A DNA stretch of 49,738 nt from Clostridiales bacterium (GCA_015056105.1 SVGX01000004.1:1-49738); one strand, 5' to 3'; shown: positions 5,711 through 24,721, counted from the stretch's first letter. Translations and numbers: made by a program. The notes: generated by a model not told the origin, from the letters alone.

Positions 5711-5826
5711 AGGTCACCTCCGCTTACAGAATACAGGATAGCGGCAAAAGAAGCAACCGACGCTTCGTCAAGTGAGAAAAGGGAACAAAAATGCCCGGGC
5801 AGAGGCCCGGGCGAAGGGGTCGGCTT

Positions 5827-5967
5827 TTATTTTTCCTTCTTGGCGAAAACGCGGTTCAGAAGGGCCACAAAGCCCCAGATGACCACGATGACCGCGAAGA
5901 TGCCCACAAGGCCCTTGAGCATGATGGGAAGGGTGACGGCGAGGGATTCGGGATTCCAGGAAAGCAT
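5827..5967 (-). CDS. Small single-TM protein, OadG-like decarboxylase gamma subunit (46 aa, not in the ORF track)
   Basis: My translation: MLSWNPESLAVTLPIMLKGLVGIFAVIVVIWGFVALLNRVFAKKEK; AGGAGGT RBS overlaps the oadB stop. Confidence 0.8.
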   Translation of the reverse strand: MLSWNPESLAVTLPIMLKGLVGIFAVIVVIWGFVALLNRVFAKKEK

Positions 5968-5979
5968 AGCGTGACCTCC

Positions 5980-7086: not shown

Positions 7087-7402
7087 GGCGAAATACCTCC
7101 TAAGATCGTTTGGGGGAGGGAAACCAACAACCTCCCCCTTATAAATATGATTTTACCAAAGTCAAGGAGAAGGGACAAGGTAAAAATATCAAAACCATGT
7201 CGATATAGATTGTAAAACATGATGAGAGACATTCGGTACGACGATGAAAGGAAAGATGTGAATAAACTGAAAATATGCTGAAAGGCCTGCCGCTTGGTAT
7301 TGAAACCGGCCTGGTTATCTTATATAGTAAAAATAAGAGGCATTTCTATCGTTGATTAAAAAAGGGTTTCAACACAAAACAGCATAAAAAAGGAGGAGCG
7401 GT

Positions 7403-9930: not shown

Positions 9931-11718
9931 TCAGATATCCGCAAGAAGGGCTTCAAGCTCTTCAAGGGAAGCGGCAAACACATCAAGGGCACTCCTGACG
10001 GCTTCGGGCTTTGTCAGATCCACGCCCGCCACCTTCAGCTCATCGAGGGGATACCGGCTGCCGCCGAGGGTGAGAAAACGGAGATAATCGGAAGCGTCGC
10101 CGGTTTTAAGGATGTTGTTCACGATGGCCACGGCGCTGGAGAAGCCGGTGGCGTACTGATACACATAGAAGGCGTTGTAGAAATGGGGAATGTAGGACCA
10201 CTCCACCTCGATGGGCTCGCTGGGGTTCACGCCTGCATAATAGAGGGTGACAAGATCCTTGTAGACCTTGTTGAGGGCTTCCGCGGTGAGGGGGATGCCT
10301 GCCTGTTCCATCTCGTGGGCGGTGCGCTCGAATTCGGCGAAGAGGGTCTGGCGGAATACGGTGGTGCGGAAGCCTTCCAGGAAGTGGTTGAGGATGTAGG
10401 CTTTGCGGGCCTTGTCCTGCTCCGTTTTGAGAAGGTGCATGGTCATGAGCACTTCGTTGACGGTGGAAGCCACTTCCGCCACAAGGATGTGGTAGTTGTG
10501 GTTCGGATAATCCTGCGCTTCGCTGGAAAGGTAGGAATGCATGGCATGGCCGAGCTCATGTGCCACGGTGAAGGCATCGTTCAGGGTATCGGTGTAGTTC
10601 AGAAGCACATAGGGATGCACGCCATGTACGCCGCAGGAGAAGGCGCCGGTGGTCTTGCCCTTGTTCTCGTAAACATCCATCCAGTTTTCCCGATAGGCTT
10701 TGTCGAGAAGCTTGCCGTATTCCTCGCCGAGGGGCTTAGTGGCTTCCTTCACAAGGGCTTTCGCTTCTTCAAAGGAAACGGGATAATCCACGCTCTCCAG
10801 CATGGGGACATAAAGATCGTACATATTGAGCTCATCAAGGCCAAGCACCTTTTTGCGCAGGTCAAGGTAGCGGCGCATGGTGGGGAGGCCGCTATGGATG
10901 GCTTCGATGAGGCTTGAATACACGCTGACGGGCACGTTGCTCTGGAACAGGCTGGCGGCGCAGGCGGATTCATGGCTGCGGATATTCGCATAGAAGGTAT
11001 CAAACTTTACATTGCCCGCATACATGGCGGCAAAGGTATTGTTGTAGCGCTTGAATTCGCCGAAATATTTCTCGAAGGCCTCCTTGCGCACCCGCTGATC
11101 GCGGCTTTCGCGGAACACGCTGAAATTGCCGTGGGTAAGCTGCACATCGTTTCCCGCTTCATCCTTCACGGTGGGGAAGGTCATATCCACATTGTGGAGC
11201 ATGGTGAAGCTGTTGTCCGGAGACTGGGCGGCATCGCTGAGCTGGGCAAGCAGCTGCTCGCGGGCAGCATCGAGGGTATGGGCGCGGGAACGGGTGATAT
11301 CATCCACCATATGACGATAGGTGGCAAGACCTTCCGTTTCCATGAAGGAAGCAAGGGTATCTTCCGGGATGGCTAGCACTTCGGGAACCAGCCAGGCTGT
11401 GGTGGTGTTGAAGTTTACGAGCAGGGACATGCAGCGCGCTTCCATCGCCTGGGCTTCCGGGTCACCGTTGTCGCCGGATTTATAGAGCATGGCGTAAAGA
11501 TAGGTAAGCTCCAGTTTTTCGCCGAGGGTATCGATGGCGCGAAAGGCTTTTTCCAGCTGCGCGGCGCTTTCGCCGAGGGTGCCGCGGAAATCCGCAAGGG
11601 CGGGGATGCCCGCTTCCACCTTTTTAAAGGAAGCTTCCCACGCTTCTTTGTCAGGGAAAATATGGGAAAGATCCCACATAAAGGCGGGGTTCATGTCTTT
11701 GCGCTGTTTGAGTTCCAT
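9931..11718 (-). CDS. pepF: Oligoendopeptidase F (M3B family)
   Basis: WDLSHIF, GKTTGAFS, HPYVLLNY, AHELGHAMHS, AEVAST, IPHFYNAFYVYQYATG. Confidence 0.97.
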   Translation of the reverse strand: MELKQRKDMNPAFMWDLSHIFPDKEAWEASFKKVEAGIPALADFRGTLGESAAQLEKAFRAIDTLGEKLELTYLYAMLYKSGDNGDPEAQAMEARCMSLLVNFNTTTAWLVPEVLAIPEDTLASFMETEGLATYRHMVDDITRSRAHTLDAAREQLLAQLSDAAQSPDNSFTMLHNVDMTFPTVKDEAGNDVQLTHGNFSVFRESRDQRVRKEAFEKYFGEFKRYNNTFAAMYAGNVKFDTFYANIRSHESACAASLFQSNVPVSVYSSLIEAIHSGLPTMRRYLDLRKKVLGLDELNMYDLYVPMLESVDYPVSFEEAKALVKEATKPLGEEYGKLLDKAYRENWMDVYENKGKTTGAFSCGVHGVHPYVLLNYTDTLNDAFTVAHELGHAMHSYLSSEAQDYPNHNYHILVAEVASTVNEVLMTMHLLKTEQDKARKAYILNHFLEGFRTTVFRQTLFAEFERTAHEMEQAGIPLTAEALNKVYKDLVTLYYAGVNPSEPIEVEWSYIPHFYNAFYVYQYATGFSSAVAIVNNILKTGDASDYLRFLTLGGSRYPLDELKVAGVDLTKPEAVRSALDVFAASLEELEALLADI

Positions 11719-11765: not shown

Positions 11766-12866
11766 TCAGGCTTCGGGAGTATCATCTTCCCGGAATACGG
11801 GGGTGGGCGCTTCCGTTTCTACGTTTATCGCCACATCCATGGCTATATCGACGGAAGGATCGGCCTGAACGGGTGCGGACTGCGGCACAAAGGGCGGGAA
11901 GGAAGTGCCTTCAAGCCGGGCACGGGCATCGAAGTAAAGCACCGTGGCGATGGCGGGCTGGTACAGGGCCAGGAAGATGATCAGCCCGAGATAAAGAACG
12001 GTGACAAGGCTGATGGCAACGGCTGCCGCGGCGGCGGGCAGCAGCTCGCTGACGGCGACGACGGCGCCGAAAAGGAGTGCTGCTACGATGACGGCGCCGT
12101 TGATGATGAACATGCAGCCGACGACCCGGCCGAACCGCTTCCACACGAGCCTGATGCTGCGGCCCACGGCGGCAAAGTTTTTAAGGGGCTCATTTACCGC
12201 CACGGGGAATACGAAAAGCAGCAGGGAGCTTGCGACAACGGTGACGGCAAGCACGAGAAGATAGATAAATACAAAAGCGATAACGGCGCCGACGCCGAGG
12301 GAAGCACTTTCGCCCACAACGGCAAAAACGGAGCCGAACAGGACGAAGACCGTCATCACGCCGGTCAGAAGGCCCGTAACAAGGCTGACGGCGAAATTGA
12401 TGCCCCAGGCGGAAAGCAGATTGCAGAGGGTAGTGGTAAAAAAGCGCTTTAAGCTGTATTTGCTGCGGCGCAGCATTTGCCCGAGGGAACTTGCCCGCCC
12501 ATAAACACGGGCTGTCATTTCCCCGTAGACGGTACCCGAAACGATGGGTACGAACAGCAGCGAAAGAGCGAGGGCGGCGAGCATAACAAGGAACATGCCG
12601 CCGAGCAGGCCGGCGATAAAGGAAAGCACATCGCCGCCGGAAGCGGAGAAGGAAGAGGAGAAACCGTTGGAAGTGCCTTCAAGGGAAAACCCCGCAAGAA
12701 CGATGGCAAGGGTGCCGGGCAGCGGAAGGAGCAGCGCGAAAAGCAAGTACAGCACATGATACCCGGCAAGCGCACCGAGACGGCGGCGGACAAGCTGATT
12801 CGCGATGCCGAAGACGCCGCGCAGGGTCAGCGGGCGGATCACGATGGGGGGATAGGTTTTGAGCAT
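11766..12866 (-). CDS. Multi-pass membrane protein (glycerophosphodiester phosphodiesterase membrane-domain-like)
   Basis: About 6 TM segments, N-terminal IRPLTL and C-terminal LYFDARAR pattern; AGGAGG RBS before ATG 12866. Confidence 0.75.
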   Translation of the reverse strand: MLKTYPPIVIRPLTLRGVFGIANQLVRRRLGALAGYHVLYLLFALLLPLPGTLAIVLAGFSLEGTSNGFSSSFSASGGDVLSFIAGLLGGMFLVMLAALALSLLFVPIVSGTVYGEMTARVYGRASSLGQMLRRSKYSLKRFFTTTLCNLLSAWGINFAVSLVTGLLTGVMTVFVLFGSVFAVVGESASLGVGAVIAFVFIYLLVLAVTVVASSLLLFVFPVAVNEPLKNFAAVGRSIRLVWKRFGRVVGCMFIINGAVIVAALLFGAVVAVSELLPAAAAAVAISLVTVLYLGLIIFLALYQPAIATVLYFDARARLEGTSFPPFVPQSAPVQADPSVDIAMDVAINVETEAPTPVFREDDTPEA

Positions 12867-13029
12867 AAGCGCCACCTCCTGAAAGATAAATTGTCATTTA
12901 CAGTATACCACGAAAAAAGGAAAACACGCTACGCTTCCCGGGGAAAAACCCATGGCAAGGGGATGAAGATACTGTGGCAAACCGTGCCGTACTTTGCATG
13001 GATGCACATTTCGTGCACAAAATCCGCAC

Positions 13030-13058
13030 TTGATAGCAAACAAATGTTCTGCTAAAAT
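13030..13058 (+). promoter_or_regulatory. SigmaA promoter with a LexA-type (Cheo) box in the spacer
   Basis: TTGATA (13030-35), 17 bp, TG-n-TAAAAT (13053-58); AAAC-AAAT-GTTC at 13038-13049 matches GAAC-N4-GTTC with one mismatch. Confidence 0.75.
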
Positions 13059-13091
13059 GCAGACAGTGGATGCGTGGGCAACATGCATCCC

Positions 13092-13128
13092 GGCCGTTTA
13101 AGAAAAGCAAGCGGCTTTTTTATTTTTT
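13092..13128 (+). terminator. Terminator-like hairpin in the 5' leader of the virion operon
   Basis: GCCGTTT/AAGCGGC stem followed by TTTTTTATTTTTT; preceded by a second hairpin at 13068-13090. Confidence 0.6.
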
Positions 13129-13179
13129 GGCAGCGCCGGCCGGAACGGCGCAGCGCACGAAAGTGCGAAAGGAGGATAG

Positions 13180-13734
13180 ATGAACAAATCTGTACGAAAG
13201 CCCCTCAAGGAGGCGTTCGAGGAGAGGATGGCCCTTGAAGGCGCCGTGAAAAAGGTGCGGGAGGAGTACGAGAACAGCCCCGAATACCGCATCGGCTGTG
13301 AGCTCATTGACGGTCTGACGGAGGAGCTTGGCATTTCCGCCGAGCAGGCGGCGGAGATGCTTTCCGCCAAGGTACGCCCGAGCGGCGTGGATGTGCTTTC
13401 AAGCCGCGCGGCAGCCACCCTTGGTGAGATGGAGAAGCAGGGCGCGCTCAAGCGCCCCGCGAAAGCGTACCTTGAGGAAGCCGCTTTTGAAGCGCTGCTC
13501 AAAGAGCTGCCCGCGGCGGCAGCCATCCGTGTGTTTGATGCGGAAAACGCGCTGCAGCAGGCAGGGGCACAGGCGAACAGCGAAAGGGAGCAGGAGATCT
13601 ACGAGATGATCCGCGCCCAGCGGGCACTGCCCCGCCAGATGAAGCCCCAGGCACCCACCGCACAGAGCCCGGACTTCGGCCGCATGAGCAGCGAAGAATT
13701 CGAGCTTTTCAAGAAGCACTACTTTTCCCGCTGA
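13180..13734 (+). CDS. Putative capsid scaffolding protein
   Basis: Charged helical protein directly upstream of the capsid gene, ending in a PDFGRMSSEEF tail as seen in scaffold-position genes; function inferred from position. Confidence 0.6.
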   Translation: MNKSVRKPLKEAFEERMALEGAVKKVREEYENSPEYRIGCELIDGLTEELGISAEQAAEMLSAKVRPSGVDVLSSRAAATLGEMEKQGALKRPAKAYLEEAAFEALLKELPAAAAIRVFDAENALQQAGAQANSEREQEIYEMIRAQRALPRQMKPQAPTAQSPDFGRMSSEEFELFKKHYFSR

Positions 13735-13768
13735 CAAAAAACACTAAGAAAGGAAAGAAAAACAAACT

Positions 13769-14980
13769 ATGGCAAACAACATGACCAACACCACCAACAC
13801 CACTGTACCCGGTACCGGGCTCAATAAGACTTTTTTTGACAGGCAGCTGCTTGAAGGCGCCCGCACCCGCCTTGTGCATGCGGAATACGGCCAGAAGCGC
13901 GTGATCCCCCCGCACAACGGCAAAAGGGTGGAATTCCGCCGATGGAACCTGTTCGATATCGATGAAAACATGTGCGCCCTTTCCGAAGGCGTGACCCCCG
14001 ACGGTCAGACCCTTTCCCAGAGCATCGTGGAAGCGGAGGTAAGCCAGTACGGTGCCTTTGTGGAGGTTTCCGACCTGCTTGAACAGACCGCTTACGAGCA
14101 GGTGCTCAAGGACAGCGCGGAGCTTCTCGGCGAGCAGCTTGGCACCGTTGTGGAATGGGTGACCCGCGACGCCATGTGCTCCGGAAACAACGTGCAGCGC
14201 GCCGGCGGCAAGACCCTCCGCAGCGAGATCGAAGACAGCGACACCCTGACCGTCGATGAGATCCGCAAGGCGGTGCGCACCCTCAAGAAGGCCAAGGCGC
14301 GCCCCTTCGGCGGCAAAAACGGCAGGAAACAGCACTTTATCTGCATCTGTTCTCCCGATGCGACCTACGACCTGCAGAACGACCCCATGTGGCAGGATGT
14401 TTCCAAATATGCCGCCCATGAGCAGCTTTATACCGGTGAGATCGGTATGCTGTTCGGCGTGGTATTCGTGGAATCCACCGAAGCGAAGGTGATCCGCCAG
14501 GCGGTGCTGAGCAAGGTCGTTTCCCATGCCGGCGGCAGCGCAGTTCTGACCGTGGATGTGCTCAGCAAGGAGGGCGCGGCATTCCTCAACAAGGGCGGCG
14601 CAGTCATCAGCATCGGCGATCAGGAATATGCCGTCGCTTCCGCCGATGCGGAAAGCAAGACCATCACCCTTTCGGCGGCGCCCGGCAGCGCTTTTGCGGC
14701 GGGCACCCTTGTTTACAGCACCGAAGCGGGCAAGATGGATGAAACCACCAGGGCTGCGGCGGATGTGCACATGACCCTTGTGTTCGGCAAGGACGCTTAC
14801 GGCACCATCGACCTTTCGAGCGGCGGTGCTGTGACCACCATCATCAAGGGCCGCGGCAGCGCCGGCACCGATGATCCCCTTGACCAGCGTGCCACCGTCG
14901 GCGCGAAGGTGATGGGCTTCACCGCAGCCATCCTCAACGACCTCTGGCTGCTCCGCATCGAACACGGCGTCAGCGCCTGA
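13769..14980 (+). CDS. Major capsid protein, N4-gp56 family
   Basis: GKRVEFRR, LSEGVTPDG, QYGAFVEVSD, GEIGMLFGVVFVES and DPLDQRATVGAK motifs. Confidence 0.9.
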   Translation: MANNMTNTTNTTVPGTGLNKTFFDRQLLEGARTRLVHAEYGQKRVIPPHNGKRVEFRRWNLFDIDENMCALSEGVTPDGQTLSQSIVEAEVSQYGAFVEVSDLLEQTAYEQVLKDSAELLGEQLGTVVEWVTRDAMCSGNNVQRAGGKTLRSEIEDSDTLTVDEIRKAVRTLKKAKARPFGGKNGRKQHFICICSPDATYDLQNDPMWQDVSKYAAHEQLYTGEIGMLFGVVFVESTEAKVIRQAVLSKVVSHAGGSAVLTVDVLSKEGAAFLNKGGAVISIGDQEYAVASADAESKTITLSAAPGSAFAAGTLVYSTEAGKMDETTRAAADVHMTLVFGKDAYGTIDLSSGGAVTTIIKGRGSAGTDDPLDQRATVGAKVMGFTAAILNDLWLLRIEHGVSA

Positions 14981-14994
14981 CGGATATTTTTACG

Positions 14995-15028
14995 GGGGAA
15001 CGGCGGAAAAGCCGTTCCCTTTCCCTTT
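14995..15028 (+). terminator. Weak terminator or stem-loop after the capsid gene
   Basis: GGGAACGGC/GCCGTTCCC stem followed by an interrupted U tract. Confidence 0.65.
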
Positions 15029-15060
15029 GACCGAAAAAGATGATAAGGAGGAAATGAAAC

Positions 15061-15348
15061 ATGAAATACATGACCGACCGTGAGATCGATCAGCTCAGCG
15101 GCGAGGCGGGCGAGCGCCTTCGGAAGGAGAAGAAGGTCAGGATCCGCATTATGCCCCGTGAGGGCGGAACCAATACACCCTGGGAGGGTGGACTGAATGG
15201 CTGGTTTTTCCGCATCCCCCGCGGCATTCCCGTGGAGGTGCCGGAAAGCCTTGCAAAGCTGATCCGCGAAAACGAATGCACGGAGGCGCTTGCGAAGGAG
15301 AGGCTGCAGGAATACCGCGGCGGCCGCGGCAAGCGTCTTCGCGTATAA
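15061..15348 (+). CDS. Small phage protein of the type that follows N4-gp56 capsids
   Basis: GLNGWFFRIPRGIPVEVPESLAKLI resembles the NG..Y.I.RG..V.VP motif; AAGGAGG RBS. Confidence 0.7.
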   Translation: MKYMTDREIDQLSGEAGERLRKEKKVRIRIMPREGGTNTPWEGGLNGWFFRIPRGIPVEVPESLAKLIRENECTEALAKERLQEYRGGRGKRLRV

Positions 15349-15360
15349 GGAGGGGTTCGC

Positions 15361-15909
15361 GTGACGCTCAACGATATTATCGTTTCCGCCCTTGCACAGC
15401 TTGACCGCGGGCACGATGCGCAGACCCTTGACACCTGGCGTGACAAGTTCACCCGTTTTGCCAACGAAGCGGTGGTCGACCTCAGCGCCGCCTGGTGCCC
15501 CCGCCGCACGGAGGATTTTACCCTTTCGGGAAAGCTGCTCGACACGAGAAAGCTTCAAAGGGAATGCATCCGGGTACACGGGGTAAAGCGGCTTGGCCGC
15601 TATATGACGTTTTTTGAGACCGGCGACAGCGGCATTCTCTGCGTGCCCGGCGCAAAGGCGGACAGCGTGGTGCAGGTGAATTACCGCTTTGCGCCCCATA
15701 CCCTTTCGAGCACCAGCGATGTGCCGGAGCTGCCCGACTGGTGCCACGGGCTGATCGTCTGCTACGTGGTGGGCAGGGAGCGCGCCAGCGGCGAGGTAGG
15801 CATCCAGAGGGGCAGCAACATCTATTTTCAGATGTACGAAGCCGGAAAGGCCAGGCTGCGCCCCCACATGGGCGGTGCGGACAGCTACCGCATCCTGAAC
15901 AGGTGGTGA
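15361..15909 (+). CDS. Putative head-tail adaptor (podovirus-type)
   Basis: MTLNDII start, ANEA, and PELPDWCHGLIVCY motif; size and position fit an adaptor; AAGGAGG RBS with GTG start. Confidence 0.65.
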   Translation: MTLNDIIVSALAQLDRGHDAQTLDTWRDKFTRFANEAVVDLSAAWCPRRTEDFTLSGKLLDTRKLQRECIRVHGVKRLGRYMTFFETGDSGILCVPGAKADSVVQVNYRFAPHTLSSTSDVPELPDWCHGLIVCYVVGRERASGEVGIQRGSNIYFQMYEAGKARLRPHMGGADSYRILNRW

Positions 15910-15913
15910 TCCC

Positions 15914-17338
15914 ATGGCCCGCAGGATATACCGCATCGACGAATTTCACGGCATCGACCAATCCCGCAACGAAAACGCCATCGGTGCGGGCATGAGCCCG
16001 GATGCAGCCAATATGGATACGGAAAACGGCAGCCTGGCGGTGGCGGCGGGCTATGTCAGACACATCGATGCGCCCGTCCCCGGCGACGCGCCCCCTCACA
16101 GGCTGTTTCTTCACCGAAGAAAGGATGGGGATGTGTTCATCGCCATTGCGGGGGACACGGTCTACGCCTGCAGGGACGGCGTTTGGAAGGAGATCTATAC
16201 CTACGAAACGCCCCTTGCCGCCCACGAGTTTGATTTTGCGGAGGTGCAGATCGACAGCGTGGACCACCTTGTGATCGGCTGCGGGGAAAGGCAGCTCATC
16301 AAATACAACGGCAGCGAAGTGAGCCTTTTCGGCAGCGAAGAGGGACTTTCCAATGTGCACGTCCGCTACCTTGCCATGTACCGCAACAGGCTTTTTTCCG
16401 CGGGCGACAGCGAACACCCGAACCGGCTTTACTGGTCGCAGCTGCCCGGCAGCGGCAGAAGCATCGAAAACTGGGGCATTGTGGAGGCTTCCCCCAACGT
16501 GGAGGGCGGCCACACGGAGGTGGGAGATACGGGCGGCGACCCCATCACGGGGCTTGCGGCCCTTTCCAACCAGCTGCTGATCTTCAAACAGCACGAGATA
16601 TACCGGCTTCTTGGCGATAGACCCGGCAATTACATCGTAGAAAAGGTGGAATCCCGGGGCGAGACGCCCGCCCATACGGCGGTGGTGCCTTCCGGCGATG
16701 CCCTTTATTACATGACGAAAAGCGGCCTTTGCTGCTTTAACGGTGTGAGCGCCGCACCCATGGGTGACGCAAGGCGCATCCGCACCATCCTTTCGGATGC
16801 GGACACCTCCCGCTCGAAGGGCGCCATCTGCGCGGACAAGCTTTATTTTACCCTTCAGCAAAGCGGCGGCAGCGCGGTAGCCGTATACGACCTTGTGCGG
16901 GGCGCATACATGATGCGAAACGGCTTTACCGCCCACGATGTCTGCGCCAGGGGAGATACCCTTTACATCCTTAACGGCAAGCGGCATGTTTGCCGCTTCG
17001 GCGAGGGCCGCACCTACGACGGCATTCCCATTGCGGCCCATTGGCAGACGCCCCTTACGGATCTGCACGAGAAGGGGTGCGTCAAATGCATGCGGGAGCT
17101 TTACCTGCGCGGCAGCAGCGAATTGCCCGATTCCGTGATCCTGATGGATATGACGGTGGGCAAAAACACCGCCGCGCACCGCATCCGCGTGCCGGATACC
17201 CGGGATGAGGTGTCGGAAGTGCCCCTTGTAAACGAGGGACGCACATTCTCCATGCGCTTTTACAACGAGGCGGGCGGGCACTTTGTGATAGAGGCGGGCA
17301 TAGAGCTGATGTTCGATGAACGGAGGCGAAGCGAATAA
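15914..17338 (+). CDS. Putative tail nozzle/hub protein (P22 gp10 / T7 gp12-like beta-propeller)
   Basis: FHGID...DAANM start, YRNRLF, NRLYWS, GDPITGL...LLIFK, ALYYMTKSG propeller-type motifs; follows the adaptor. Confidence 0.7.
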   Translation: MARRIYRIDEFHGIDQSRNENAIGAGMSPDAANMDTENGSLAVAAGYVRHIDAPVPGDAPPHRLFLHRRKDGDVFIAIAGDTVYACRDGVWKEIYTYETPLAAHEFDFAEVQIDSVDHLVIGCGERQLIKYNGSEVSLFGSEEGLSNVHVRYLAMYRNRLFSAGDSEHPNRLYWSQLPGSGRSIENWGIVEASPNVEGGHTEVGDTGGDPITGLAALSNQLLIFKQHEIYRLLGDRPGNYIVEKVESRGETPAHTAVVPSGDALYYMTKSGLCCFNGVSAAPMGDARRIRTILSDADTSRSKGAICADKLYFTLQQSGGSAVAVYDLVRGAYMMRNGFTAHDVCARGDTLYILNGKRHVCRFGEGRTYDGIPIAAHWQTPLTDLHEKGCVKCMRELYLRGSSELPDSVILMDMTVGKNTAAHRIRVPDTRDEVSEVPLVNEGRTFSMRFYNEAGGHFVIEAGIELMFDERRRSE

Positions 17339-17523
17339 TGGCACTTGATATGCGCGCGCTCTATTATATTGCGCTGCCCACGGGCGCGCTCCGGGAGGAG
17401 AACAAACAGACCTATACGGAGCGGGTGAAGGCAAACGAAAACTGCATGAACCAGAATTTTACCATACTGGCGCAGAAGATCGCAGAACTGGAGGCGCGGC
17501 TTGCCGCGCTTGAAAACGAATAA
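17338..17523 (+). CDS. Small coiled-coil phage protein
   Basis: TAATG translational coupling; C-terminal heptads KIAELEARLAALE. Confidence 0.7.
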   Translation: MALDMRALYYIALPTGALREENKQTYTERVKANENCMNQNFTILAQKIAELEARLAALENE

Positions 17524-17540
17524 AGGAAGGAGAACACACT

Positions 17541-18488
17541 TTGGCAAGTTATTATGTTTTGGAGGGCTACACCACGCCCGCCGGCGTCGACAGCCGGCAA
17601 AAGGTGAAGGATTACCAGAAACAGCTTGGCGTACGGGCGGACGGCATCTGGGGACCGGAGACGCAGGCGGCATACAATGCTTCCGGCATGGGAAATACCA
17701 CGGAGCGCTGGGGTTTGCTGCACGGCAGCAGCTACGGCACCGGCGCAGCGAACACCTTCGGCGCATTTTACAACGATGCCCTTTCGATGCTCGGCACGCC
17801 GTCCATCCATGTGAACACCCCCTCAAGGGCATCCATCGAAAAGGATATTGCCGCATCATTGCGCCCGGCGACGGAGCAGGCCATTGATGCGCGAAGGGAC
17901 CAGGCGGAGACCAACATGGCAGAGCTTGATGCGGACGCCGCATCCCGCGGCATGGGCGCTTCCACCTATGTGACCAGCATGAAAGGCAGGGAACTGAGCA
18001 GGAGCGAAAGCGATGTGGCGATGATGGAATCCAACTATTCCGCCGCCCTTGCGGAACGCGTGGCAAACTATCTGCAGTACTATGCCAACCTGGAGTTTCA
18101 GGCGGCGATGCAGAATGCGCAGCTTCGCACCAACGCGCAGAATGCGGCTGCAAGCCTTGCATCGCAGTGGTACGCCGCATACCTTGCGGCAAACGCCGCG
18201 AACAGCAGCGGCGGCAGCGGAAAGAGCGGCAGCAGCGCTGCGGATAACAAAGAATACTTCAGCATGACGGCGGACGAATACGAAGCTTTTGTGCGGGGCA
18301 TGAGCAGCAGTGAGCTGCTGGAGCTCTTCAATTCGAAAGATGCTTACTGGCAGGACAGCCGCGACGAGCTTTACGATGCGCTCGGCAGCAGCCGCTACAG
18401 CGCGCTTGAAAGCAGTCTGAACCCCGTTAAGAAAAAAACGTCGGGCTTGAGCGGAAAGGAAGGCACATGGGTGAGAGAGAAGTATTAA
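17541..18488 (+). CDS. Putative internal virion/ejection protein with N-terminal peptidoglycan-binding-like motif
   Basis: VKDYQKQLGVRADGIWGPETQAAY resembles PG_binding_1; Ala/Ser/Gln-rich helical middle; TTG start after AAGGAAGGAG. Confidence 0.6.
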   Translation: MASYYVLEGYTTPAGVDSRQKVKDYQKQLGVRADGIWGPETQAAYNASGMGNTTERWGLLHGSSYGTGAANTFGAFYNDALSMLGTPSIHVNTPSRASIEKDIAASLRPATEQAIDARRDQAETNMAELDADAASRGMGASTYVTSMKGRELSRSESDVAMMESNYSAALAERVANYLQYYANLEFQAAMQNAQLRTNAQNAAASLASQWYAAYLAANAANSSGGSGKSGSSAADNKEYFSMTADEYEAFVRGMSSSELLELFNSKDAYWQDSRDELYDALGSSRYSALESSLNPVKKKTSGLSGKEGTWVREKY

Positions 18489-19402
18489 AACGCTTTGAAG
18501 TTGCCCTTGATATCAGCCGATCCATTTCAAACCGCGCTTTTACGGTGGTGGAAGGCGATACGGGCAACCTTCTGCACATTACCCTTACCGACAACGGCAT
18601 GCCGGTGGACCTCACCGGCTGCCGTGTGCTGGCGGTCTTTTCAAAATCCAACGGCACCTCCTCCCAGGACAGCGGCGTGGAAGAAGGCGGCGTGAGCCTT
18701 GGCGGCAAAAGCGGGAACGAGGTGACCATCTCCCTTTTCAACAGCTCTTTCGCACCGGGCATGGTGGAATGTGAACTGCAGGTGTATTCCGGAGAGGACC
18801 GCATGACCCTTGTGACGAGCGCAAAGTTCAATTTCAACTGCAGGCGCGGCATACTCAACGGGGAAACGGTACAATCCACCGGCGATTATCCGGTGCTTGT
18901 GGCGCTGATCGCCGAGACGGAAAAAGCGGCGGCGGCAGCCTATGCGGCTGCTGCCGCCACAGGACAGGCTGCCCATGCATCGCGCCATGCAGCAGGCGGC
19001 ACAGACCCCCTGACGCCTGCAGCCATCGGTGCGGCCACGGCGGAGCACACGCACGCACCCGCAACCATCGGTGCGGCCGCAGCGGAGCATACGCACACGC
19101 CTGCTGCCATCGGTGCGGCCGCAGCACCCATCATTGCCGCAAACGTTGCGGTGGAACTGAGCTGTTGGGCGGACGATGCCACCTTCGCTGCATACCCTTA
19201 CCGGGCGGCGGTTCCTGTGAGCGCCGCAAAAGAAGGAATGTATGCATATGTATCCTTCGACGCTGCGGAATCCGACAGCGGCGCTTACGCAAAGCAGACA
19301 GCGGCGTATGAAGGCGGCGTTTACATCTATGCCAATGCACTGCCTGCAACGACCATCACGCTGTTGACGGTGCTGCTGATCCCCGTTGGAGGTGCCGTAT
19401 GA
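18467..19402 (+). CDS. BppU/DUF2479-like fibre-anchoring protein with His-x-His repeats
   Basis: VVEGDTGNLLHITLTDNGMPVDLTG...F.KSNG...GMVECELQVY...TSAKFNF; HASRHAAGGTDPLTPAAIGA and HTH repeats. Confidence 0.8.
   Translation: MGEREVLKRFEVALDISRSISNRAFTVVEGDTGNLLHITLTDNGMPVDLTGCRVLAVFSKSNGTSSQDSGVEEGGVSLGGKSGNEVTISLFNSSFAPGMVECELQVYSGEDRMTLVTSAKFNFNCRRGILNGETVQSTGDYPVLVALIAETEKAAAAAYAAAAATGQAAHASRHAAGGTDPLTPAAIGAATAEHTHAPATIGAAAAEHTHTPAAIGAAAAPIIAANVAVELSCWADDATFAAYPYRAAVPVSAAKEGMYAYVSFDAAESDSGAYAKQTAAYEGGVYIYANALPATTITLLTVLLIPVGGAV
19013..19126 (+). repeat. 42-bp tandem repeat, about 2.7 copies
   Basis: CCATCGGTGCGGCC recurs at 19023, 19065 and 19107; encodes PAAIGAAxAEHTHx. Confidence 0.9.
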
Positions 19403-19791
19403 TCTTTGGCATGACAAACGCAGGCGCAGGCGGCGGATTGAAGCTTGTGACGGGCAGTTTCACTTCGAGTAACACGGAAACCCAGGAAAAGTTTACTGTA
19501 TCCGGTCTTACCTTTGAACCGAAAATCGTTGCCATCAGGCGCACAAGCCTCACCGATGGAGATGCTGTCGGCGGTAACAACATGCTGATTTGTGCATTTT
19601 CCGATCTTGAGACAAACATAGGCTTTTGCGGATACGGCATTTCAGGTTCTGGCACGGTGAAAACATCGAGTGCTTTGACGGTATCGGGCTGCAATGGTAC
19701 ATATACCGTAACTTCGTCAACGTATCCCTTTTCCTATGTTGCTTTCGGCAAAGCGAACTATGGCAAATACACATATTACATCTACGGATAA
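19399..19791 (+). CDS. Putative tail-fibre tip / receptor-binding subunit
   Basis: ATGA coupling; Gly-rich N-terminus (GAGGG); Thr/Ser/Tyr-rich; visibly more AT-rich than its neighbours. Confidence 0.55.
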   Translation: MIFGMTNAGAGGGLKLVTGSFTSSNTETQEKFTVSGLTFEPKIVAIRRTSLTDGDAVGGNNMLICAFSDLETNIGFCGYGISGSGTVKTSSALTVSGCNGTYTVTSSTYPFSYVAFGKANYGKYTYYIYG

Positions 19792-19803
19792 GGGGTGAAC
19801 GGC

Positions 19804-20136
19804 ATGGCATTTGTGAGGTGGGTATTTTATGACACCGAAGGCAATGTGAAATATGAAGGCATGCAGGAAGGCAGCTTCCGCCATATCCCTGCGGCGGATG
19901 TGGCGGCATCCTTCGGACTGACGGATGTAAGGTGCATGGAATGGCGGCAGAAAGATCCTGCCGTTGAAGCGGCGTTTGCCGACACAGATGAGAACGGGGC
20001 GCTCCGGCACGTGGAGGTGTCCGTGGACGTGAGCGGAAACGAACCGAAACTCGTGTTTGCCTACACGCCCGTGGAGGAGACGGAAAGGGATGACCCCTAT
20101 GCGATCATTGATATTCTGACAGGAGGTGAAGCCTGA
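19804..20136 (+). CDS. Hypothetical phage protein (possible fibre assembly factor)
   Basis: Acidic small ORF in the fibre module, ending IIDILTGGEA, coupled to the next gene. Confidence 0.65.
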   Translation: MAFVRWVFYDTEGNVKYEGMQEGSFRHIPAADVAASFGLTDVRCMEWRQKDPAVEAAFADTDENGALRHVEVSVDVSGNEPKLVFAYTPVEETERDDPYAIIDILTGGEA

Positions 20137-20564
20137 TGGCAGTAAGGACTATGGAAGAAGCCCGTGCATGGCGGGCAAGGATGGAGAACCTGACGAAGGA
20201 AGCAACGGATGCGACCGCTTCCACCATGCCGGAAGCCTTTCCGAAGCTGAAGGGTGACGGAAGCCTTGTAAGGGCCGGTACCCGCATCAACTGGCATGGC
20301 ATGCTGAAGCGTGCTGCCGCAGACCTGTGGGACACGGCGGAAAACACGCCGGAAAATGCGCCCTCGCTGTGGGAGGATATCGACTATAGGGACGGCATCC
20401 GCATCATCCCCGATTTGATCACAGCGGGCACGGCCTTCCAAAAGGGTGAACTTGGCTGGTGGGGCGATGCTGTTTATCGCTCCGTGCATGACGGCGCAAA
20501 CGTGTGGACGCCCGAAGAGTATCCTGCCGCATGGGAAAAAGCGGAGGAGGAAGGTGATGTATGA
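20136..20564 (+). CDS. Phage protein with a CBM5/12-like tryptophan module
   Basis: PENAPSLWEDI, FQKGELGWWGDAVYRS...NVWTPEEYPAAWE. Confidence 0.7.
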   Translation: MAVRTMEEARAWRARMENLTKEATDATASTMPEAFPKLKGDGSLVRAGTRINWHGMLKRAAADLWDTAENTPENAPSLWEDIDYRDGIRIIPDLITAGTAFQKGELGWWGDAVYRSVHDGANVWTPEEYPAAWEKAEEEGDV

Positions 20565-21265
20565 TGCAGGGCTTTCTTGAATATTTGAAGGAACAGGTGG
20601 GCCGCTCCGTATATGTATGGGGCGGCCAGGGGGAGACGGAGATCACAGAAAAGTGGGTCCGCTCCCGGGAAAACAAGGAGGCAAATATCCTTCGGGTAAT
20701 GCGCTTTTACGAAGGCCTGCGATCAAAGGGGATATCTCCCATCCGGGCATACGATTGCAGCGGGCTGATCCTCCATTACTGGCAGGACAGGGTGGGTTTT
20801 TTCACATCGGATATGACGGCAGCCGGGCTTTTCCGGCTCTGCACGGCCCTTGAAAAGACAGCGCTGCAGCCGGGCGATCTTGTGTTTCGCCATAACGGCA
20901 CAGCCATTCACCATGTGGGTGTCTATATGGGCGACGGACAGGTGATCGAAGCGGAGGGAAGAGACAGAGGCGTTGTGGAGCGGCATATCGACGCGGGCGG
21001 AACAGGATACTGGAACCGCTTCGGCAGGCCGCCTTTTTTTGACCTCAAAAAGACGGATGACAGCTGCTTTGCCCGGGTGAAGGGCGATTCTGTGAACCTC
21101 AGGGCAGGCCCGGGGACGGAATATCCCATCGTAACGGTAACGCACCGCGGCGATCCGCTGCTTGCCCGGGCGGAACGGGAAGGCTGGTGTGAAACGGCGG
21201 CCATCGCCGGCGGCAAGATGCAGCGGGGCTACATGAGCGCAAAATATATCGAAAGAAACAAGTGA
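20561..21265 (+). CDS. Endolysin: NlpC/P60 peptidase with C-terminal SH3b domain
   Basis: YVWGG, YDCSGL, PGDLVF, HHVGVYMGDGQVIEA; SH3b VNLRAGPGTEY...GW...GYMSAKYI. Confidence 0.9.
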   Translation: MMQGFLEYLKEQVGRSVYVWGGQGETEITEKWVRSRENKEANILRVMRFYEGLRSKGISPIRAYDCSGLILHYWQDRVGFFTSDMTAAGLFRLCTALEKTALQPGDLVFRHNGTAIHHVGVYMGDGQVIEAEGRDRGVVERHIDAGGTGYWNRFGRPPFFDLKKTDDSCFARVKGDSVNLRAGPGTEYPIVTVTHRGDPLLARAEREGWCETAAIAGGKMQRGYMSAKYIERNK

Positions 21266-21278
21266 AAGGAGGGAGAGT

Positions 21279-21692
21279 ATGGAACGGATCGCGGACATTC
21301 TGAAACTTGCTGCGGCGGCGGCCGGCGCGGCGGCTTCTTATCTTTGGGGCCCCTTTGATGCGCTGATCTTGACGCTTGTGGCGGTGGTATGCATCGACTA
21401 CATCACGGGGATCGTAAAGGCGGTCATCCTTAAGGAGCTTTCGAGCGGCGTCGGATTTCGCGGGCTTCTTAAGAAGATGTTCATCTTTGCACTGGTGGCC
21501 CTTGCAACGGTCATCGATGGGATGATCCCCGCCGCAAAGGATGCCATCCGCACGGCGGTGATCGGCTTTTATGTGGCGAACGAGGGCATCAGCATCCTTG
21601 AAAACGCGGGCGCTATCGGGCTTCCCATGCCGAAGGCGCTCAAAGGCGCCCTTGAAAGGCTGCAGGAAGCCGGAGAAAATGCGCAAGAGTAA
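21279..21692 (+). CDS. Holin (Phage_holin_4_1, toxin secretion/phage lysis family)
   Basis: IDYITG, LSSGVGFRGLLKK, FYVANEGISILENAGAIGLPMP. Confidence 0.93.
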   Translation: MERIADILKLAAAAAGAAASYLWGPFDALILTLVAVVCIDYITGIVKAVILKELSSGVGFRGLLKKMFIFALVALATVIDGMIPAAKDAIRTAVIGFYVANEGISILENAGAIGLPMPKALKGALERLQEAGENAQE

Positions 21693-21785
21693 GGCGGTTT
21701 TGCGGCGAATGCACTTGTGTTCCCCGCGGGATTGGTCTTATAATAATTGAAAACAACGCAAACACAGCGGGCGGAGGAACAGCCA

Positions 21786-22715
21786 ATGCAGCAGCGGCAG
21801 CGCATCTTAACGGAATACAGGGCAAAACGGCAGGCGGCCATCGCTGCGGCGGCGGAAAACCGCGCCAAAGCGGAAGCGAAGCTGCCGCGTCTTCGCGAGA
21901 TCGAAGAGATGCAGCGGCGCCTTGCCTTTGCGCTTGGCCTGAAGCTTGTGACGGCTGCCGACAAGGATGCTGTGCGAAAGGATACCGAGACGCAGATCGC
22001 TGCCCTTGAACGGGAGGCGGAACTGCTGCTTGCGGATCACGGCATCGCCCCGGAAAGCCTTAAACCCCGGTTTGAATGTGAAATCTGCGAAGACACAGGC
22101 TTTGTGGGAGCGGAAAAACAGCCCTGCGCCTGTTTCAAAAAACGGCTGCTGCAGGCGGAATACGCATCCTCCGGCCTGGCGGAAAATGCCCGGTTCGCCC
22201 TTTTTGACGAAAGCATTTATCGGGATGAGACCCAGAAAAAACGCAGCCTCAAGGCAAAGCGCATTTTGGAGGAATATGCGCAAACACTTTCCTTCAACGA
22301 TGCAAAGGGGCTGATGCTGCTTGGCGCGGTAGGCGTGGGCAAGACCTTCCTTCTTGACTGCGTGGGCCATGCGGCCATGGAAAATGGGTTTACGGTAAAA
22401 AAATACACCGCGTACAATCTTGTCGATCGGATGCTGCAGGGCATCCGGGAGCGGGAAAGCGGCCTTGCGGCGCTGACAAAGCCTGATCTTCTGCTTATCG
22501 ATGATCTCGGCACGGAGCCCTTTATCCAGAACATCACATACGAAGGGCTTTTCGGCATTGTGAACGAAAGGCAGAATGCGGGCAAAGCCACTGCCATCGC
22601 CACGAACCTTTCCCCCAAAGAGATACTTGACGCATATGGCGAAAGACTGTTTTCAAGGCTCACATCCCCCCGGCTTTTCACGGTACTGGAACTCAAAGGG
22701 GAGAGCCTCCGCTGA
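21786..22715 (+). CDS. dnaC: DnaC/DnaI-like helicase-loader ATPase with zinc finger
   Basis: CEICEDTG...CAC zinc site, Walker A GAVGVGKT, LLLIDDLGTE, ATNL, YGERLFSRL; GGAGG RBS before ATG 21786. Confidence 0.88.
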   Translation: MQQRQRILTEYRAKRQAAIAAAAENRAKAEAKLPRLREIEEMQRRLAFALGLKLVTAADKDAVRKDTETQIAALEREAELLLADHGIAPESLKPRFECEICEDTGFVGAEKQPCACFKKRLLQAEYASSGLAENARFALFDESIYRDETQKKRSLKAKRILEEYAQTLSFNDAKGLMLLGAVGVGKTFLLDCVGHAAMENGFTVKKYTAYNLVDRMLQGIRERESGLAALTKPDLLLIDDLGTEPFIQNITYEGLFGIVNERQNAGKATAIATNLSPKEILDAYGERLFSRLTSPRLFTVLELKGESLR

Positions 22716-22775: not shown

Positions 22776-23339
22776 TTAAGGATCCACCCGGAATGTATAC
22801 TGCGCCGTACCGAGATCATACACCGCATCGATCACATACAGGCAGGGGAGATCTTCCTCCGCAATATAAAGGCTGACGCTTTCCCCTACATCGCGGATCA
22901 CAGCGGGAACGCCTTCGCCATAGCTGCCGGAGAGACATTCCTCTTCGCTGTAGCGGCGGAGTGTGAAGCTTTCAAGGGTGTGGTAAAAGCTGAAGGTGAT
23001 TTTCCCTTCCGTTTTTCCCGCTTCGATGCGGGCAAGCCATTCTTCATTGAAGGAGGCGGCGGGATGGTCTCCGCAGGCGATGGCGGAGGCGGATGTCTCA
23101 TCATCCACCGGGTATTCCCATTCATAGGCGCCAAGGGTTGCATAGGTGCAGCTTGCCACTTCGCCGTAAACGGTGGCAAGGCCAACATTGGGCGGTGACG
23201 GCAGCGGATCGGCACTGCCTGCCCAGGCGATCTCCGCCGTGGCTTCCGTTGTTGTTTCCGCTGCCGGACAGCTTTCTGTGTGCGCACAGGCGGAAAGGTA
23301 CAGCGGCAGAACGAGCAGCAGGGCAAGAAATCGTTTCAT
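22776..23339 (-). CDS. Hypothetical lipoprotein
   Basis: MKRFLALLLVLPLYLSAC lipobox; GGAGGT RBS. Confidence 0.75.
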   Translation of the reverse strand: MKRFLALLLVLPLYLSACAHTESCPAAETTTEATAEIAWAGSADPLPSPPNVGLATVYGEVASCTYATLGAYEWEYPVDDETSASAIACGDHPAASFNEEWLARIEAGKTEGKITFSFYHTLESFTLRRYSEEECLSGSYGEGVPAVIRDVGESVSLYIAEEDLPCLYVIDAVYDLGTAQYTFRVDP

Positions 23340-23401
23340 GAAGAGACCTCCCGAAAAGTCAGTGTTGCCAATAACACGGGCGAAGGAAGAAAAAGGTTGC
23401 G

Positions 23402-24598
23402 TCAATCTTCGAGAAGATCGATGCCGATGGCGGCAAGTTCCGCATCGGAATAGGTGCGTTTTTTGTGATTGTGCGCCTTTGCAAGGCCGCTCTTCTTTTC
23501 GATGCTCTGCCCCTTTTCTTCCTTCTGTTTAAAGGTTTCCGCCTGCGCCACGGTGGCAACGCCCGCATCGTGCCAGGCGGTGAGAAGCTTTTTGATATTC
23601 CCGAAGGGCTGGGAAGATTCCCGGGAAAGATCCGCGGCATAAAGGATGAGCTCCGCGCTCATATGCCATGTTTCGTGCCATGTCTCGATTTGTTCTCGCT
23701 GGGAAAGGGTGGGGGTGCGTTTAAGCCCTGCCCGGGCGAACACCATGCGCGCAAGCTCTTCGGAAGCATCCCGGGCTTTTCTGAGCGCCGCGGCGGCTTC
23801 TTCCGTAATGACGCCGTTCATGCGGTATGTGGCGAGGATGGAATCAAGGTATTTGAAGCTGGGCTGGGCGCTCGATGTGGCATCGGCACAGGCATCGAGG
23901 ATGACGGATTCATCAAAACCCCATTCTTCCACCCACTTGGCGTAAAGGGCAAGCTCATCTTCCGTGGCGGCGCGGCTGCGCTTCCACCGCTGCAGGATGC
24001 GCTGTGCGCCGGCGCAGCGCTGCCGCTCCCGCGCAAAAAAGCGCTCCGCTTCCTCTGCGGTAACGACACCCGCGTTGGCAAGGCGCTTTGCGGCGTTGTT
24101 GAGCTGCCACATCTTCGCCCGGGTGCCGTACCTTGCAAGGCATTCCCTGACGCAGAGCACGGCCGCCGCTTCCTCAAAGCGAAAGGTCTCGATCCAATCG
24201 TAGATCTCGGAAAGCTCATAGCCGGAGAACATCCTTGTGCCTGCCGCATCCTGCAGCGCCGCCACAAGGGAAGCGTATTTGCGGGGCGCATCAGCCGGGG
24301 GGGCACCTGCGGCGCCCACGGGCAGGTATTCGACGGTAAGGGGATCTTCCGCCGCTACGTGGACAAGGCCCGCCGTCTGCCAATAGGCGAAAGCTTTTGC
24401 GACAGCTGCCGCATCCACGCCGAGGATGCCGCCAATATCGAGCGATGCCGCTTCCTTGCCGGGCACGGCGGAAAGCATGAGACCGAGAAGATAGACCTTC
24501 ACATGGCCTTCCGGGGCTTTCGGCATATGCTCCGTCAAAAAGATATTGCTGACGGCGGTAACATCAAGAAGCGGGGCGCGCTTGAGAAAAACGGACAT
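23402..24598 (-). CDS. dnaD: DnaD/DnaB-domain replication protein
   Basis: VSNIFLTEHMPKA...VKVYL N-terminus; three DnaD-like repeats (W..EWGF...I..A, FKYLDSIL, IKKLLTAWHDAGV). Confidence 0.85.
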   Translation of the reverse strand: MSVFLKRAPLLDVTAVSNIFLTEHMPKAPEGHVKVYLLGLMLSAVPGKEAASLDIGGILGVDAAAVAKAFAYWQTAGLVHVAAEDPLTVEYLPVGAAGAPPADAPRKYASLVAALQDAAGTRMFSGYELSEIYDWIETFRFEEAAAVLCVRECLARYGTRAKMWQLNNAAKRLANAGVVTAEEAERFFARERQRCAGAQRILQRWKRSRAATEDELALYAKWVEEWGFDESVILDACADATSSAQPSFKYLDSILATYRMNGVITEEAAAALRKARDASEELARMVFARAGLKRTPTLSQREQIETWHETWHMSAELILYAADLSRESSQPFGNIKKLLTAWHDAGVATVAQAETFKQKEEKGQSIEKKSGLAKAHNHKKRTYSDAELAAIGIDLLED

Positions 24599-24721
24599 AG
24601 GTTTTGCTCCCTTAACATGATTCTTCAAAAGGTGTGTTTCCATTATAAAGGGCAAAGGCCCGTTGCGCAATGCGATAAAAGTTCATTGTTTGCTCATATC
24701 TTCGCATGGTATACTGTAACC

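Follow-up and report, generated by a model that had tools for sequence, protein, structure and literature searches.

The window, that is, the whole stretch of DNA analysed here, is a contig of 49,738 nucleotides (nt) from a Clostridiales bacterium (GCA_015056105.1, SVGX01000004.1:1-49738). It is contig C17 of a genome (G000) of 1.81 Mb, which is assembled in 88 contigs and is 86.6% complete. The window contains an operon of 13 open reading frames (ORFs), all on the plus strand between positions 13180 and 21692. The ORFs are separated by short gaps or overlap by 1–22 nt, and none of them contains an internal stop. The operon is probably the locus for capsid, tail and lysis in a domesticated and functional particle system of the gene transfer agent (GTA) or viriform kind, which derives from a podovirus, is fixed in the chromosome and is distributed over more than one locus.

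The head genes come first. ORF1 (13180-13734, 184 amino acids (aa)) is a scaffold candidate by position only: protein family searches gave no match, and the gene occupies the slot between the portal and capsid genes, as in the phages Page and API480 and in relatives from the same bacterial family. Its ratio of nonsynonymous to synonymous substitution rates (dN/dS, always given relative to the congeneric genome G001) is 0.15. ORF2 (13769-14980, 403 aa; dN/dS 0.13) is the major capsid protein, of the N4-gp56 or Phage_capsid_3 type (PF13252, E = 3.8e-10; phrog_1357, E = 4e-66). Compared with the PDB by sequence it matched other capsids across 50 residues only, and the protein atlas returned only 'N4-gp56 capsid' again. 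ORF3 (15061-15348, 95 aa; dN/dS 0.11) is a conserved protein of the virion module that had no match in family searches and whose gene adjoins that of the adaptor at most of the 80 loci described below. ORF4 (15361-15909, 182 aa; dN/dS 0.08) is the head-to-tail adaptor. It matches SU10_adaptor over its whole length (PF24175, E = 1.6e-6) and is 96% identical in G001.

ORF5 (15914-17338, 474 aa) is a beta-propeller tail hub or nozzle protein (phrog_3287, phrog_511). Its profile found no match in the PDB by sequence. An AlphaFold 2 model, built from an alignment of 19 sequences from the bacterial family, reached a predicted local distance difference test (pLDDT) of 90.1 and a predicted template-modelling score (pTM) of 0.88. 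In Foldseek this model matched the Pa223 tail (E = 5e-23, template-modelling (TM) score 0.81), VP1, P22 gp10, Sf6 gp8, T7 gp12 and the SU10 nozzle. Because these are hub and nozzle proteins of podovirus tails, the short-tailed reading is sound. ORF6 (17338-17523, 61 aa; dN/dS 0.04) is a helical protein whose start overlaps the nozzle stop and which follows the nozzle gene in many loci; no family matched it above threshold. ORF7 (17541-18488, 315 aa) is a virion protein and a candidate ejection or tail-associated protein. It carries a peptidoglycan (PG)-binding domain (PG_binding_1, E = 1e-5, residues 12-44) and is kept across genera, and sequence comparison with solved structures gave chance-level matches only.

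The distal genes are more variable. ORF8 (18467-19402) encodes an anchor or baseplate protein of the BppU_N type (PF10651, E = 8e-6, above the cut-off), with a variable C-terminal part and homologues that range from 191 to 873 aa. Within this gene, three tandem 42-nt repeats (19016-19141) encode a 14-aa unit. ORFs 9 to 11 (19399-20564) encode small distal proteins of 130, 113 and 142 aa (19399-19791, 19795-20136 and 20136-20564), which are candidates for fibre or receptor-binding proteins. Family searches with these three gave no match save a weak one to phrog_18593. They vary even inside the genus: ORF9 has 55% identity to its counterpart in G001, and the congener G003 yielded neither ORF9 nor ORF11. 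Two lysis genes close the operon. ORF12 (20561-21265; dN/dS 0.13) is an endolysin with an NlpC/P60 peptidase (PF00877, E = 8e-13) and an SH3 domain (PF08239, SH3_3, E = 1e-7), and ORF13 (21279-21692; dN/dS 0.07) is a holin (PF05105, Phage_holin_4_1, E = 1.5e-38; phrog_199, E = 2e-25).

A sequence-only reading of the window had proposed 13 intact, co-oriented ORFs, and all of them lie where it placed them, free of stops. Families or fold support its capsid, adaptor, nozzle, BppU anchor, lysin and holin, and the podovirus nozzle fold of ORF5 bears out its short-tailed particle. It had also described the operon as stand-alone. This description fails, since the operon lacks the portal and the large terminase (TerL).

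Both missing genes were found by a tblastn search of the G000 genome, and both lie on another contig, C32. This second particle locus (G000:C32:28025-31560) consists of a gene for a helix-turn-helix (HTH) protein resembling sigma region 4, TerL (C32:28588-29916; Terminase_6N/6C; phrog_979, E = 1.5e-53) and the portal gene (C32:29962-31560; P22_portal, E = 2.9e-21; SU10_portal; phrog_156, E = 3e-50). To its left are host genes for oxidoreductase and AcnX. Because portal and TerL sit on C32, the system is multilocus and the operon is one half of it. In related phages (Page-like and API480) the gene order is small terminase (TerS)-TerL-x-portal-scaffold-capsid. Hence the split falls exactly between portal and scaffold. 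The capsid had been held to argue against a tailocin, and it does: capsid, portal and TerL are all present and conserved, which rules out a tailocin.

A small conserved ORF of 68 aa lies directly 3' of the portal gene (G000:C32:31578-31784; L023:14579-14785). Its product is 98% identical in G001, 73% in G003, 71% in G002 and 36-44% in G007, G021 and G026, and it always lies beside portal or TerL. PHROG matches were at chance level only.

In genera where the head genes are contiguous, a 151-aa TerS of phrog_606 precedes TerL, and this protein was found at 33 further loci, some of which are one genome counted twice. The genomes in which this TerS was looked for and not found (G000, G001, G002, G003, G007 and G031) have a 188-aa protein next to TerL, which is the HTH protein of the C32 locus and is present in 12 of 36 family genomes. 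In the window's genus its stop overlaps the TerL start; in G007 and G031 the two genes are divergently oriented. The protein may stand in for TerS or act as a late activator. Its overlap with TerL and its occurrence where the phrog_606 TerS is not found suggest the former. A regulator is suggested by its C-terminal HTH, which resembles sigma-70 region 4, by a match to the phrog_36 'transcriptional regulator' (E = 1e-6), by a weak match to region 4 of extracytoplasmic function (ECF) sigma-70 factors, and by its fold. The likeness of the fold to sigma region 4 is local (TM score 0.73-0.75 across 63-70 residues), and Foldseek gave no match at E ≤ 0.001.

The operon is embedded in host genes. A membrane protein gene (11766-12875) and pepF (9931-11718), both on the minus strand, flank it on the left, and a gene for a DnaC/IstB-type loader (21747-22715) on the right. 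Family genomes without the capsid likewise carry one orthologue of the loader gene, which is a host gene. Farther away lie addB and addA (42629-49436), which encode the host recombination helicase-nuclease; we used AddA as host marker. Direct repeats around the operon are short and at chance level, with no att-like repeats among them, and no tRNA gene was found in the window. Family searches found no integrase and no repressor beside the operon. Its codon usage is that of the host: relative synonymous codon usage correlates with that of the host genes of the window at r = 0.94 (one half of the host genes against the other, 0.96), and GC content at third codon positions is 0.708 versus 0.711. 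All of this agrees with the sequence-only reading, which had noted host-like codons and had seen no integrase, repressor or att repeats. The flanking genes that it named stand for the membrane protein, pepF and dnaC. Its dnaD could not be confirmed, the ORF in question (22776-23405) having no family match, and the ORF of its M1 peptidase is over-extended.

This 920-aa ORF (23465-26227) contains a Peptidase_M1 domain in residues 712-909 only, and its N-terminal part has a dN/dS of 1.3-1.5. An overlapping minus-strand ORF (23402-24670) is 70% identical in G003. The real genes between 23402 and 26227 are probably this minus-strand gene and a shorter peptidase gene that starts near 24700. Likewise, a 474-aa plus-strand ORF at 5791-7215 is the antisense shadow of oadB (5980-7086, minus strand; OAD_beta, E = 1e-149).

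Within the window's genus the operon is fixed between pepF and dnaC, the outcome that had been proposed as a check of synteny. In other genera oadB lies upstream in 12 loci (in 11 before the scaffold gene, in one, L111, before TerL), and dnaC lies downstream in six. In ten genomes, from this and other genera, the clusters are 8-11 kb long and border directly on genes with homologues at other places in G000.

The arrangement of the particle genes was counted in 80 loci of species representatives. TerL, portal and capsid genes are contiguous in 32 of them. Portal and capsid genes are contiguous in a further nine, in seven of which TerL is not adjacent, while two are cut upstream. The window's type, with neither portal nor TerL within at least 3.5 kb upstream, accounts for 24 loci, and in 15 the upstream sequence is too short to judge. 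Ample sequence on both flanks was available for 44 loci. There, 27 have the portal without lysis genes, 12 have lysis genes without the portal (as in the window), five have neither and none has both. Further variants have the adaptor-nozzle block shifted behind the lysis genes or extra genes inserted after the capsid gene. Thus whole functional modules move and the genes themselves stay unbroken. No locus examined carries an integrase or a replication module, and none of the 44 holds a complete system. Nor do the relatives examined carry a complete prophage at this site, a finding that would have spoken against domestication. Two traits of GTAs and viriforms are therefore present: structural genes without replication, integration or excision genes, and dispersal over more than one locus (C17 and C32 in G000).

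Vertical inheritance of the system extends over the whole of one Christensenellales-like family of gut Clostridia. Of 36 other family genomes, 33 contain the capsid gene and 33 the portal gene; beyond the family but within the order, only four of 24 genomes have the capsid gene. A capsid profile matched 208 of 240 family genomes, 113 of the 124 that are at least 90% complete, and 46 of 50 genera. The gene is nearly always single copy and without internal stop, and the 120 best capsid homologues all fall in one clade with that of the window. Identity to G000 declines with taxonomic distance in capsid and portal in step with AddA. For the capsid it is 90% in G001, 81-82% in other congeners and 57-65% in other genera; for the portal the values are 89%, 77% and 52-64%, and for AddA 84%, 65-68% and 38-48%.

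Maximum-likelihood trees of AddA, capsid and portal were built for the 14 genomes whose analysed loci include all three genes; genomes in which these loci lack one of the three were left out. All major clades are common to the three trees, namely {G010, G021}, {G000-G003}, {G008, G012} with G019, and {G009, G011, G013, G023}, and Mantel correlations are 0.88-0.91. The dN/dS values are 0.04-0.31 for all 13 genes of the operon, 0.08 for TerL and 0.10 for the portal. They resemble those of the host genes pepF (0.11), dnaC (0.15) and AddA (0.17). Three genes were set aside in this comparison: the M1 ORF (an artefactual 1.48), oadB, which lies outside the G001 loci compared, and one small gene of C32 for which dS was incomputable. 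Hence the particle genes descend with their host and are under purifying selection. Presence across relatives, agreement of capsid and host trees and the dN/dS test were all points on which the sequence-only reading had staked its proposal, and each of them came out in its favour.

Related capsids also occur outside the family. Among 399 scored genomes from other families of Clostridia, 51 match the capsid profile, including 12 of 13 in family f42, eight of eight in f33 and two of two in f41. Six loci were compared with the window (L124-L129). At those of f42 the capsid alone resembles genes of the window; in f54, f57 and f33 TerL and mostly the portal do so too. The six have 40-54% G+C and differ in their neighbours. 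Such matches may be further domesticated clusters. The congener G004 carries a second type of capsid gene (42% identity) and a portal gene (32%) side by side (G004:C14:6422-10678). The orthologous capsid was not found in the G004 assembly, which is 95% complete. The pair probably represents a true prophage from the same lineage. Finally, two contigs from human faecal viromes labelled 'Bacteriophage sp.', L186 (MT836150.1) and L187 (MT835607.1), have related TerL, portal and capsid genes. With capsid identities of 39-45% and G+C contents of 43% and 60%, they look like other elements.

A sigma-70-type promoter, TTGATA-17-TAAAAT with a TG extension, precedes the operon on the plus strand (13030-13058). 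With 10 of 12 matches it is the best promoter-like site between 12500 and 22900, and its hexamers and spacing are kept in four congeneric genomes, so that the sigmaA promoter previously ascribed to the operon is confirmed as a conserved site. Its -35/-10 spacer contains AAACAAATGTTC (13038-13049), a LexA (SOS) box of the Cheo type. We take GAAC-N4-GTTC to be the Gram-positive LexA (Cheo) box; the operon box has this form perfectly, in the same place, in G001, G002 and G003, and reads AAAC...GTTC in G000. The C32 locus has its own box, AGAACAAATGTTCT, upstream of TerL and portal. It is invariant in four of four genomes and lies just 3' of a promoter-like site, TTGAAA-17-TACTAT, and 5' of the ribosome binding site of the first gene.

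The same box precedes recA in five of five congeners and, in three of three, a lexA-like S24 gene; a second S24 gene has it in none of three. In G000, boxes lie in the TTGAC-type promoters of two genes for Y-family (IMS) polymerases (dinB-like) and of a UvrD/PcrA helicase gene (C22:30279, C55:2151, C67:16800). Neither recA nor the lexA-like gene was found in the incomplete G000 assembly. In G001 a distance of 12 kb separates the two, so that the lack of a single contig would account for both. Across the genome, the strict motif shows no enrichment (19 sites found, about 26 expected). We regard SOS control of the system in the window's genus as a well-supported prediction.

Between promoter and first gene lies a 5' leader (13059-13179, plus strand). 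It comprises a variable hairpin, an invariant T-run (TTTTTATTTTT), two conserved G+C hairpins and then the ribosome binding site. The stem GCGCCG/CGGCGC is invariant in five of five genomes, one of 13 pairs shows a compensatory change, and the sequence of the first hairpin differs between species. No Rfam family reached its gathering score in the window. From its sequence the leader looks like a terminator or attenuator.

In the sequence-only reading such a particle in Clostridia was not known as a characterised system. This no longer holds, because a podovirus-like, GTA-like element with two operons, FpGTA, has been published for Faecalibacterium prausnitzii (Borodovich et al., Nat Commun 2026, PMC12946183; 2024 preprint). 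According to the accessible part of that paper, its two operons are 125 kb apart and have no replication or integration genes. Operon 1 (10 ORFs, 10.5 kb) contains TerS, TerL, portal, scaffold, capsid and further virion genes, and operon 2 (5.5 kb) encodes baseplate, fibre, receptor-binding protein, holin and endolysin. FpGTA forms 40-nm capsids with about 9 kb of DNA, and its proteins were confirmed by proteomics (PMC12946183). MMseqs2 clustering placed FpGTA only in Faecalibacterium. The same source describes GTA-like packaging as the commonest mode in which capsids carry host DNA in human faecal viromes, with genes identified only for Faecalibacterium, and reports such packaging for metagenome-assembled genomes of Christensenellaceae, where the genes are unnamed (PMC12946183). 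A 2026 preprint, as far as its available text goes, presents candidate two-cluster GTAs in Coprocola.

The system described here is a further member of the kind that FpGTA defines, in another order. Going by the available description of FpGTA, both have a host among gut Clostridia, podovirus-type gene content that includes holin and endolysin, two operons, and no genes for replication or integration. The division of FpGTA between portal and lysis genes recurs in most genera of the family, as in the 27 of 44 well-flanked loci with a portal and no lysis genes, with the phrog_606 TerS before TerL. However, the host here belongs to a different order (Christensenellales-like). In contrast to the published FpGTA operons, the window's genus has its break between portal and scaffold, with the fibre and lysis genes joined to those of the capsid operon, and an HTH protein takes the place of a recognisable TerS. 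SOS boxes lie at both promoters here, whereas the accessible text on FpGTA yielded no mention of LexA. What the family adds to FpGTA is co-phylogeny throughout a family, a consistently multilocus and fluid architecture, and LexA boxes at both loci in one genus. A literature search, outside which most subscription journals lay, found no GTA gene cluster of Christensenellales, no family-wide co-phylogeny of a podovirus-type GTA and no direct control of one by LexA boxes.

Other systems are less similar. GTAs of the RcGTA type in Alphaproteobacteria also consist of domesticated head, tail and lysis genes at several loci, which are inherited vertically under purifying selection, and they lyse a subpopulation of cells. 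The domestication, the several loci, the vertical inheritance and the selection are shared by the system here. However, RcGTA-type particles are siphovirus-like, with tape measure and tail tube, and are regulated via CtrA, GafA and quorum sensing, whereas the system here is short-tailed, with nozzle and adaptor, and has promoters with LexA boxes. PBSX of Bacillus subtilis is a defective element; DNA damage induces it, its particles contain host DNA, and the producer cell is lysed. It has a contractile tail, a single locus and its own repressor, and occurs only among close relatives of a single species. Both are defective, phage-like elements of Gram-positive bacteria, and induction, packaging and lysis of the same sort are predicted for ours, but ours is short-tailed, multilocus and spans a family-level clade. 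The closest cultured phages by capsid are podophages of Bacillus (Pagevirus) and Paenibacillus (API480-like), with 31-35% identity over part of the protein and all below 60%. They share the module order TerS-TerL-portal-scaffold-capsid-tail-lysis. Yet they are complete, autonomous phages of 40-45 kb with replication genes, whereas the system here has only structural and lysis genes, about 12-16 kb at two or more loci.

We propose the following course of events, which draws on gene content. LexA would repress both promoters through the SOS boxes, and DNA damage would derepress both loci in a fraction of cells. Scaffold and capsid protein would then assemble a procapsid on the portal, and TerL would fill it by headful. 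The packaged DNA is probably that of the host, because the element cannot replicate or excise itself. The short tail would consist of adaptor, nozzle, 61-aa protein, PG-binding protein, BppU-type anchor and the variable distal proteins. Holin and NlpC/P60-SH3 lysin would lyse the producer and so release the particles, which may transfer their DNA.

Several observations weigh against a functional GTA-like system. The system is known from its genes, a look for RNA runs covering 13000-21700 having listed none, and the comparison with the Faecalibacterium element covers described gene content and operons rather than gene-for-gene sequence homology. In the window's genus a clear TerS was not found: phrog_606 was searched for in G000, G001, G002, G003, G007 and G031 without a match. 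The G000 assembly is incomplete. No capsid match was obtained in 32 of 240 family genomes, 11 of the 124 high-quality ones among them, which implies that the system can be lost. Kinship among the genomes inflates the p-value of the Mantel test, and the portal tree is a quick tree, not a careful one. The evidence for SOS boxes has limits as well. Sites with one mismatch number 17 in the window against 15.2 expected, so the lone box of G000 is not above chance. A perfect box precedes the cluster in seven of 80 loci, three of which come from this genus, with about 0.7 expected from background density; SOS control is thus not family-wide. Direct SOS control is moreover typical of prophages, PBSX and bacteriocins more than of the classical alphaproteobacterial GTAs.

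How, then, could the operon be explained otherwise? An integrated prophage would unite integrase, repressor, replication module and att sites in one island, and no such island was found here. Host genes on both flanks, host-like codons, the lack of att-like repeats and tRNA genes, and 44 well-flanked loci of which none is complete rule it out. An inert remnant of an old prophage, kept by chance or through single co-opted genes such as lysin or holin, would likewise be fragmented and lack integration and replication genes, as decaying prophages do. Such decay hardly fits 13 intact genes with an equally intact TerL and portal, dN/dS values equal to those of host genes, a single, stop-free capsid gene in 46 of 50 genera, trees congruent with the host tree, and rearrangement by modules that breaks no gene. 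We consider a remnant highly improbable. Together, distribution, trees, selection, synteny and architecture lead us to reject both prophage and decaying remnant.

The operon could also be a structural-gene reservoir or a satellite, which works only with a co-resident helper phage, for instance by providing that phage with capsids or tails or by using its packaging machinery. The same hosts do contain true phages of related type as well as prophage-like copies, such as the capsid and portal pair on G004:C14 (42% and 32% identity), and no recognised small terminase was found in the genus. However, TerL, portal, a full tail and lysis genes all belong to the system itself, and no integrase, replication or excision genes lie beside the clusters examined. 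Unlike satellites, which are mobile, the locus here keeps one place in the genus, and its trees agree with that of the host; most genomes lack a second related capsid. A satellite therefore seems to us very unlikely indeed.

The remaining alternative concerns what the particle is selected for, and the region behind the portal gene (G000:C32:31812-36498; L023:14813-19499) bears on it. Directly after the portal gene lies a gene for a 612-aa protein. Residues 55-91 of this protein resemble the PG-binding N-terminus of ORF7, and its C-terminal 110 residues have a JAB-type HSH..S..D motif with a weak match to DUF4329 (Tox-JAB-2). The C-terminal domain is repeated in two orphan ORFs of 116 and 138 aa, and four paralogous small membrane proteins are interleaved with these JAB-domain cassettes. 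These genes are laid out like a polymorphic toxin with its immunity genes and orphan cassettes. In L048, L049 and L055 a homologue of the 612-aa protein is encoded between the genes for the capsid and the 95-aa protein. The protein atlas returned nothing for the 612-aa protein.

The same SOS-induced particle could thus be a PBSX-like killer, selected to kill non-kin and maybe carrying a toxin. SOS boxes at both loci suit this reading, as damage-induced bacteriocins and PBSX are expected to carry them. So do the JAB-domain protein with its orphan cassettes and small membrane proteins, its homologues inside the capsid-tail operon at three other loci, and the hypervariable distal tail genes. But the matches to DUF4329 fall short of the Pfam cut-off (E 0.001-0.005), ordinary phage tail proteins can contain JAB domains too, and the 612-aa protein is only a candidate component of the particle. 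In most genera the toxin-like cassette does not belong to the cluster. TerL and portal are intact and under strong purifying selection, which implies that DNA packaging matters. The killing alternative is also left open for FpGTA in the accessible text of its paper (PMC12946183). We regard a pure killer as unlikely. The two functions might be combined in an SOS-triggered, kin-discriminating particle that carries host DNA together with a polymorphic JAB-domain (Tox-JAB-2-like) toxin, recruited through the N-terminal module common to ORF7, with membrane-anchored immunity proteins encoded nearby. This more specific idea is speculative and, in our view, quite improbable. If it were true, cells that lyse altruistically after DNA damage would set free particles lethal to relatives without immunity, while kin that are immune would receive DNA from them.

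A domesticated, GTA-like podovirus particle, as the sequence-only reading had it, is thus supported by synteny, distribution, trees and dN/dS, although the system is neither stand-alone nor without a known counterpart. For the gut Clostridia, it provides a concrete gene set in a second order, where packaging had been reported without named genes. The evidence points to an ancient system that about 50 genera have received by vertical descent, that is always multilocus, and whose genes are reshuffled in module-sized blocks. In at least one of these genera, the LexA boxes on both loci would be a simple candidate switch for its induction.

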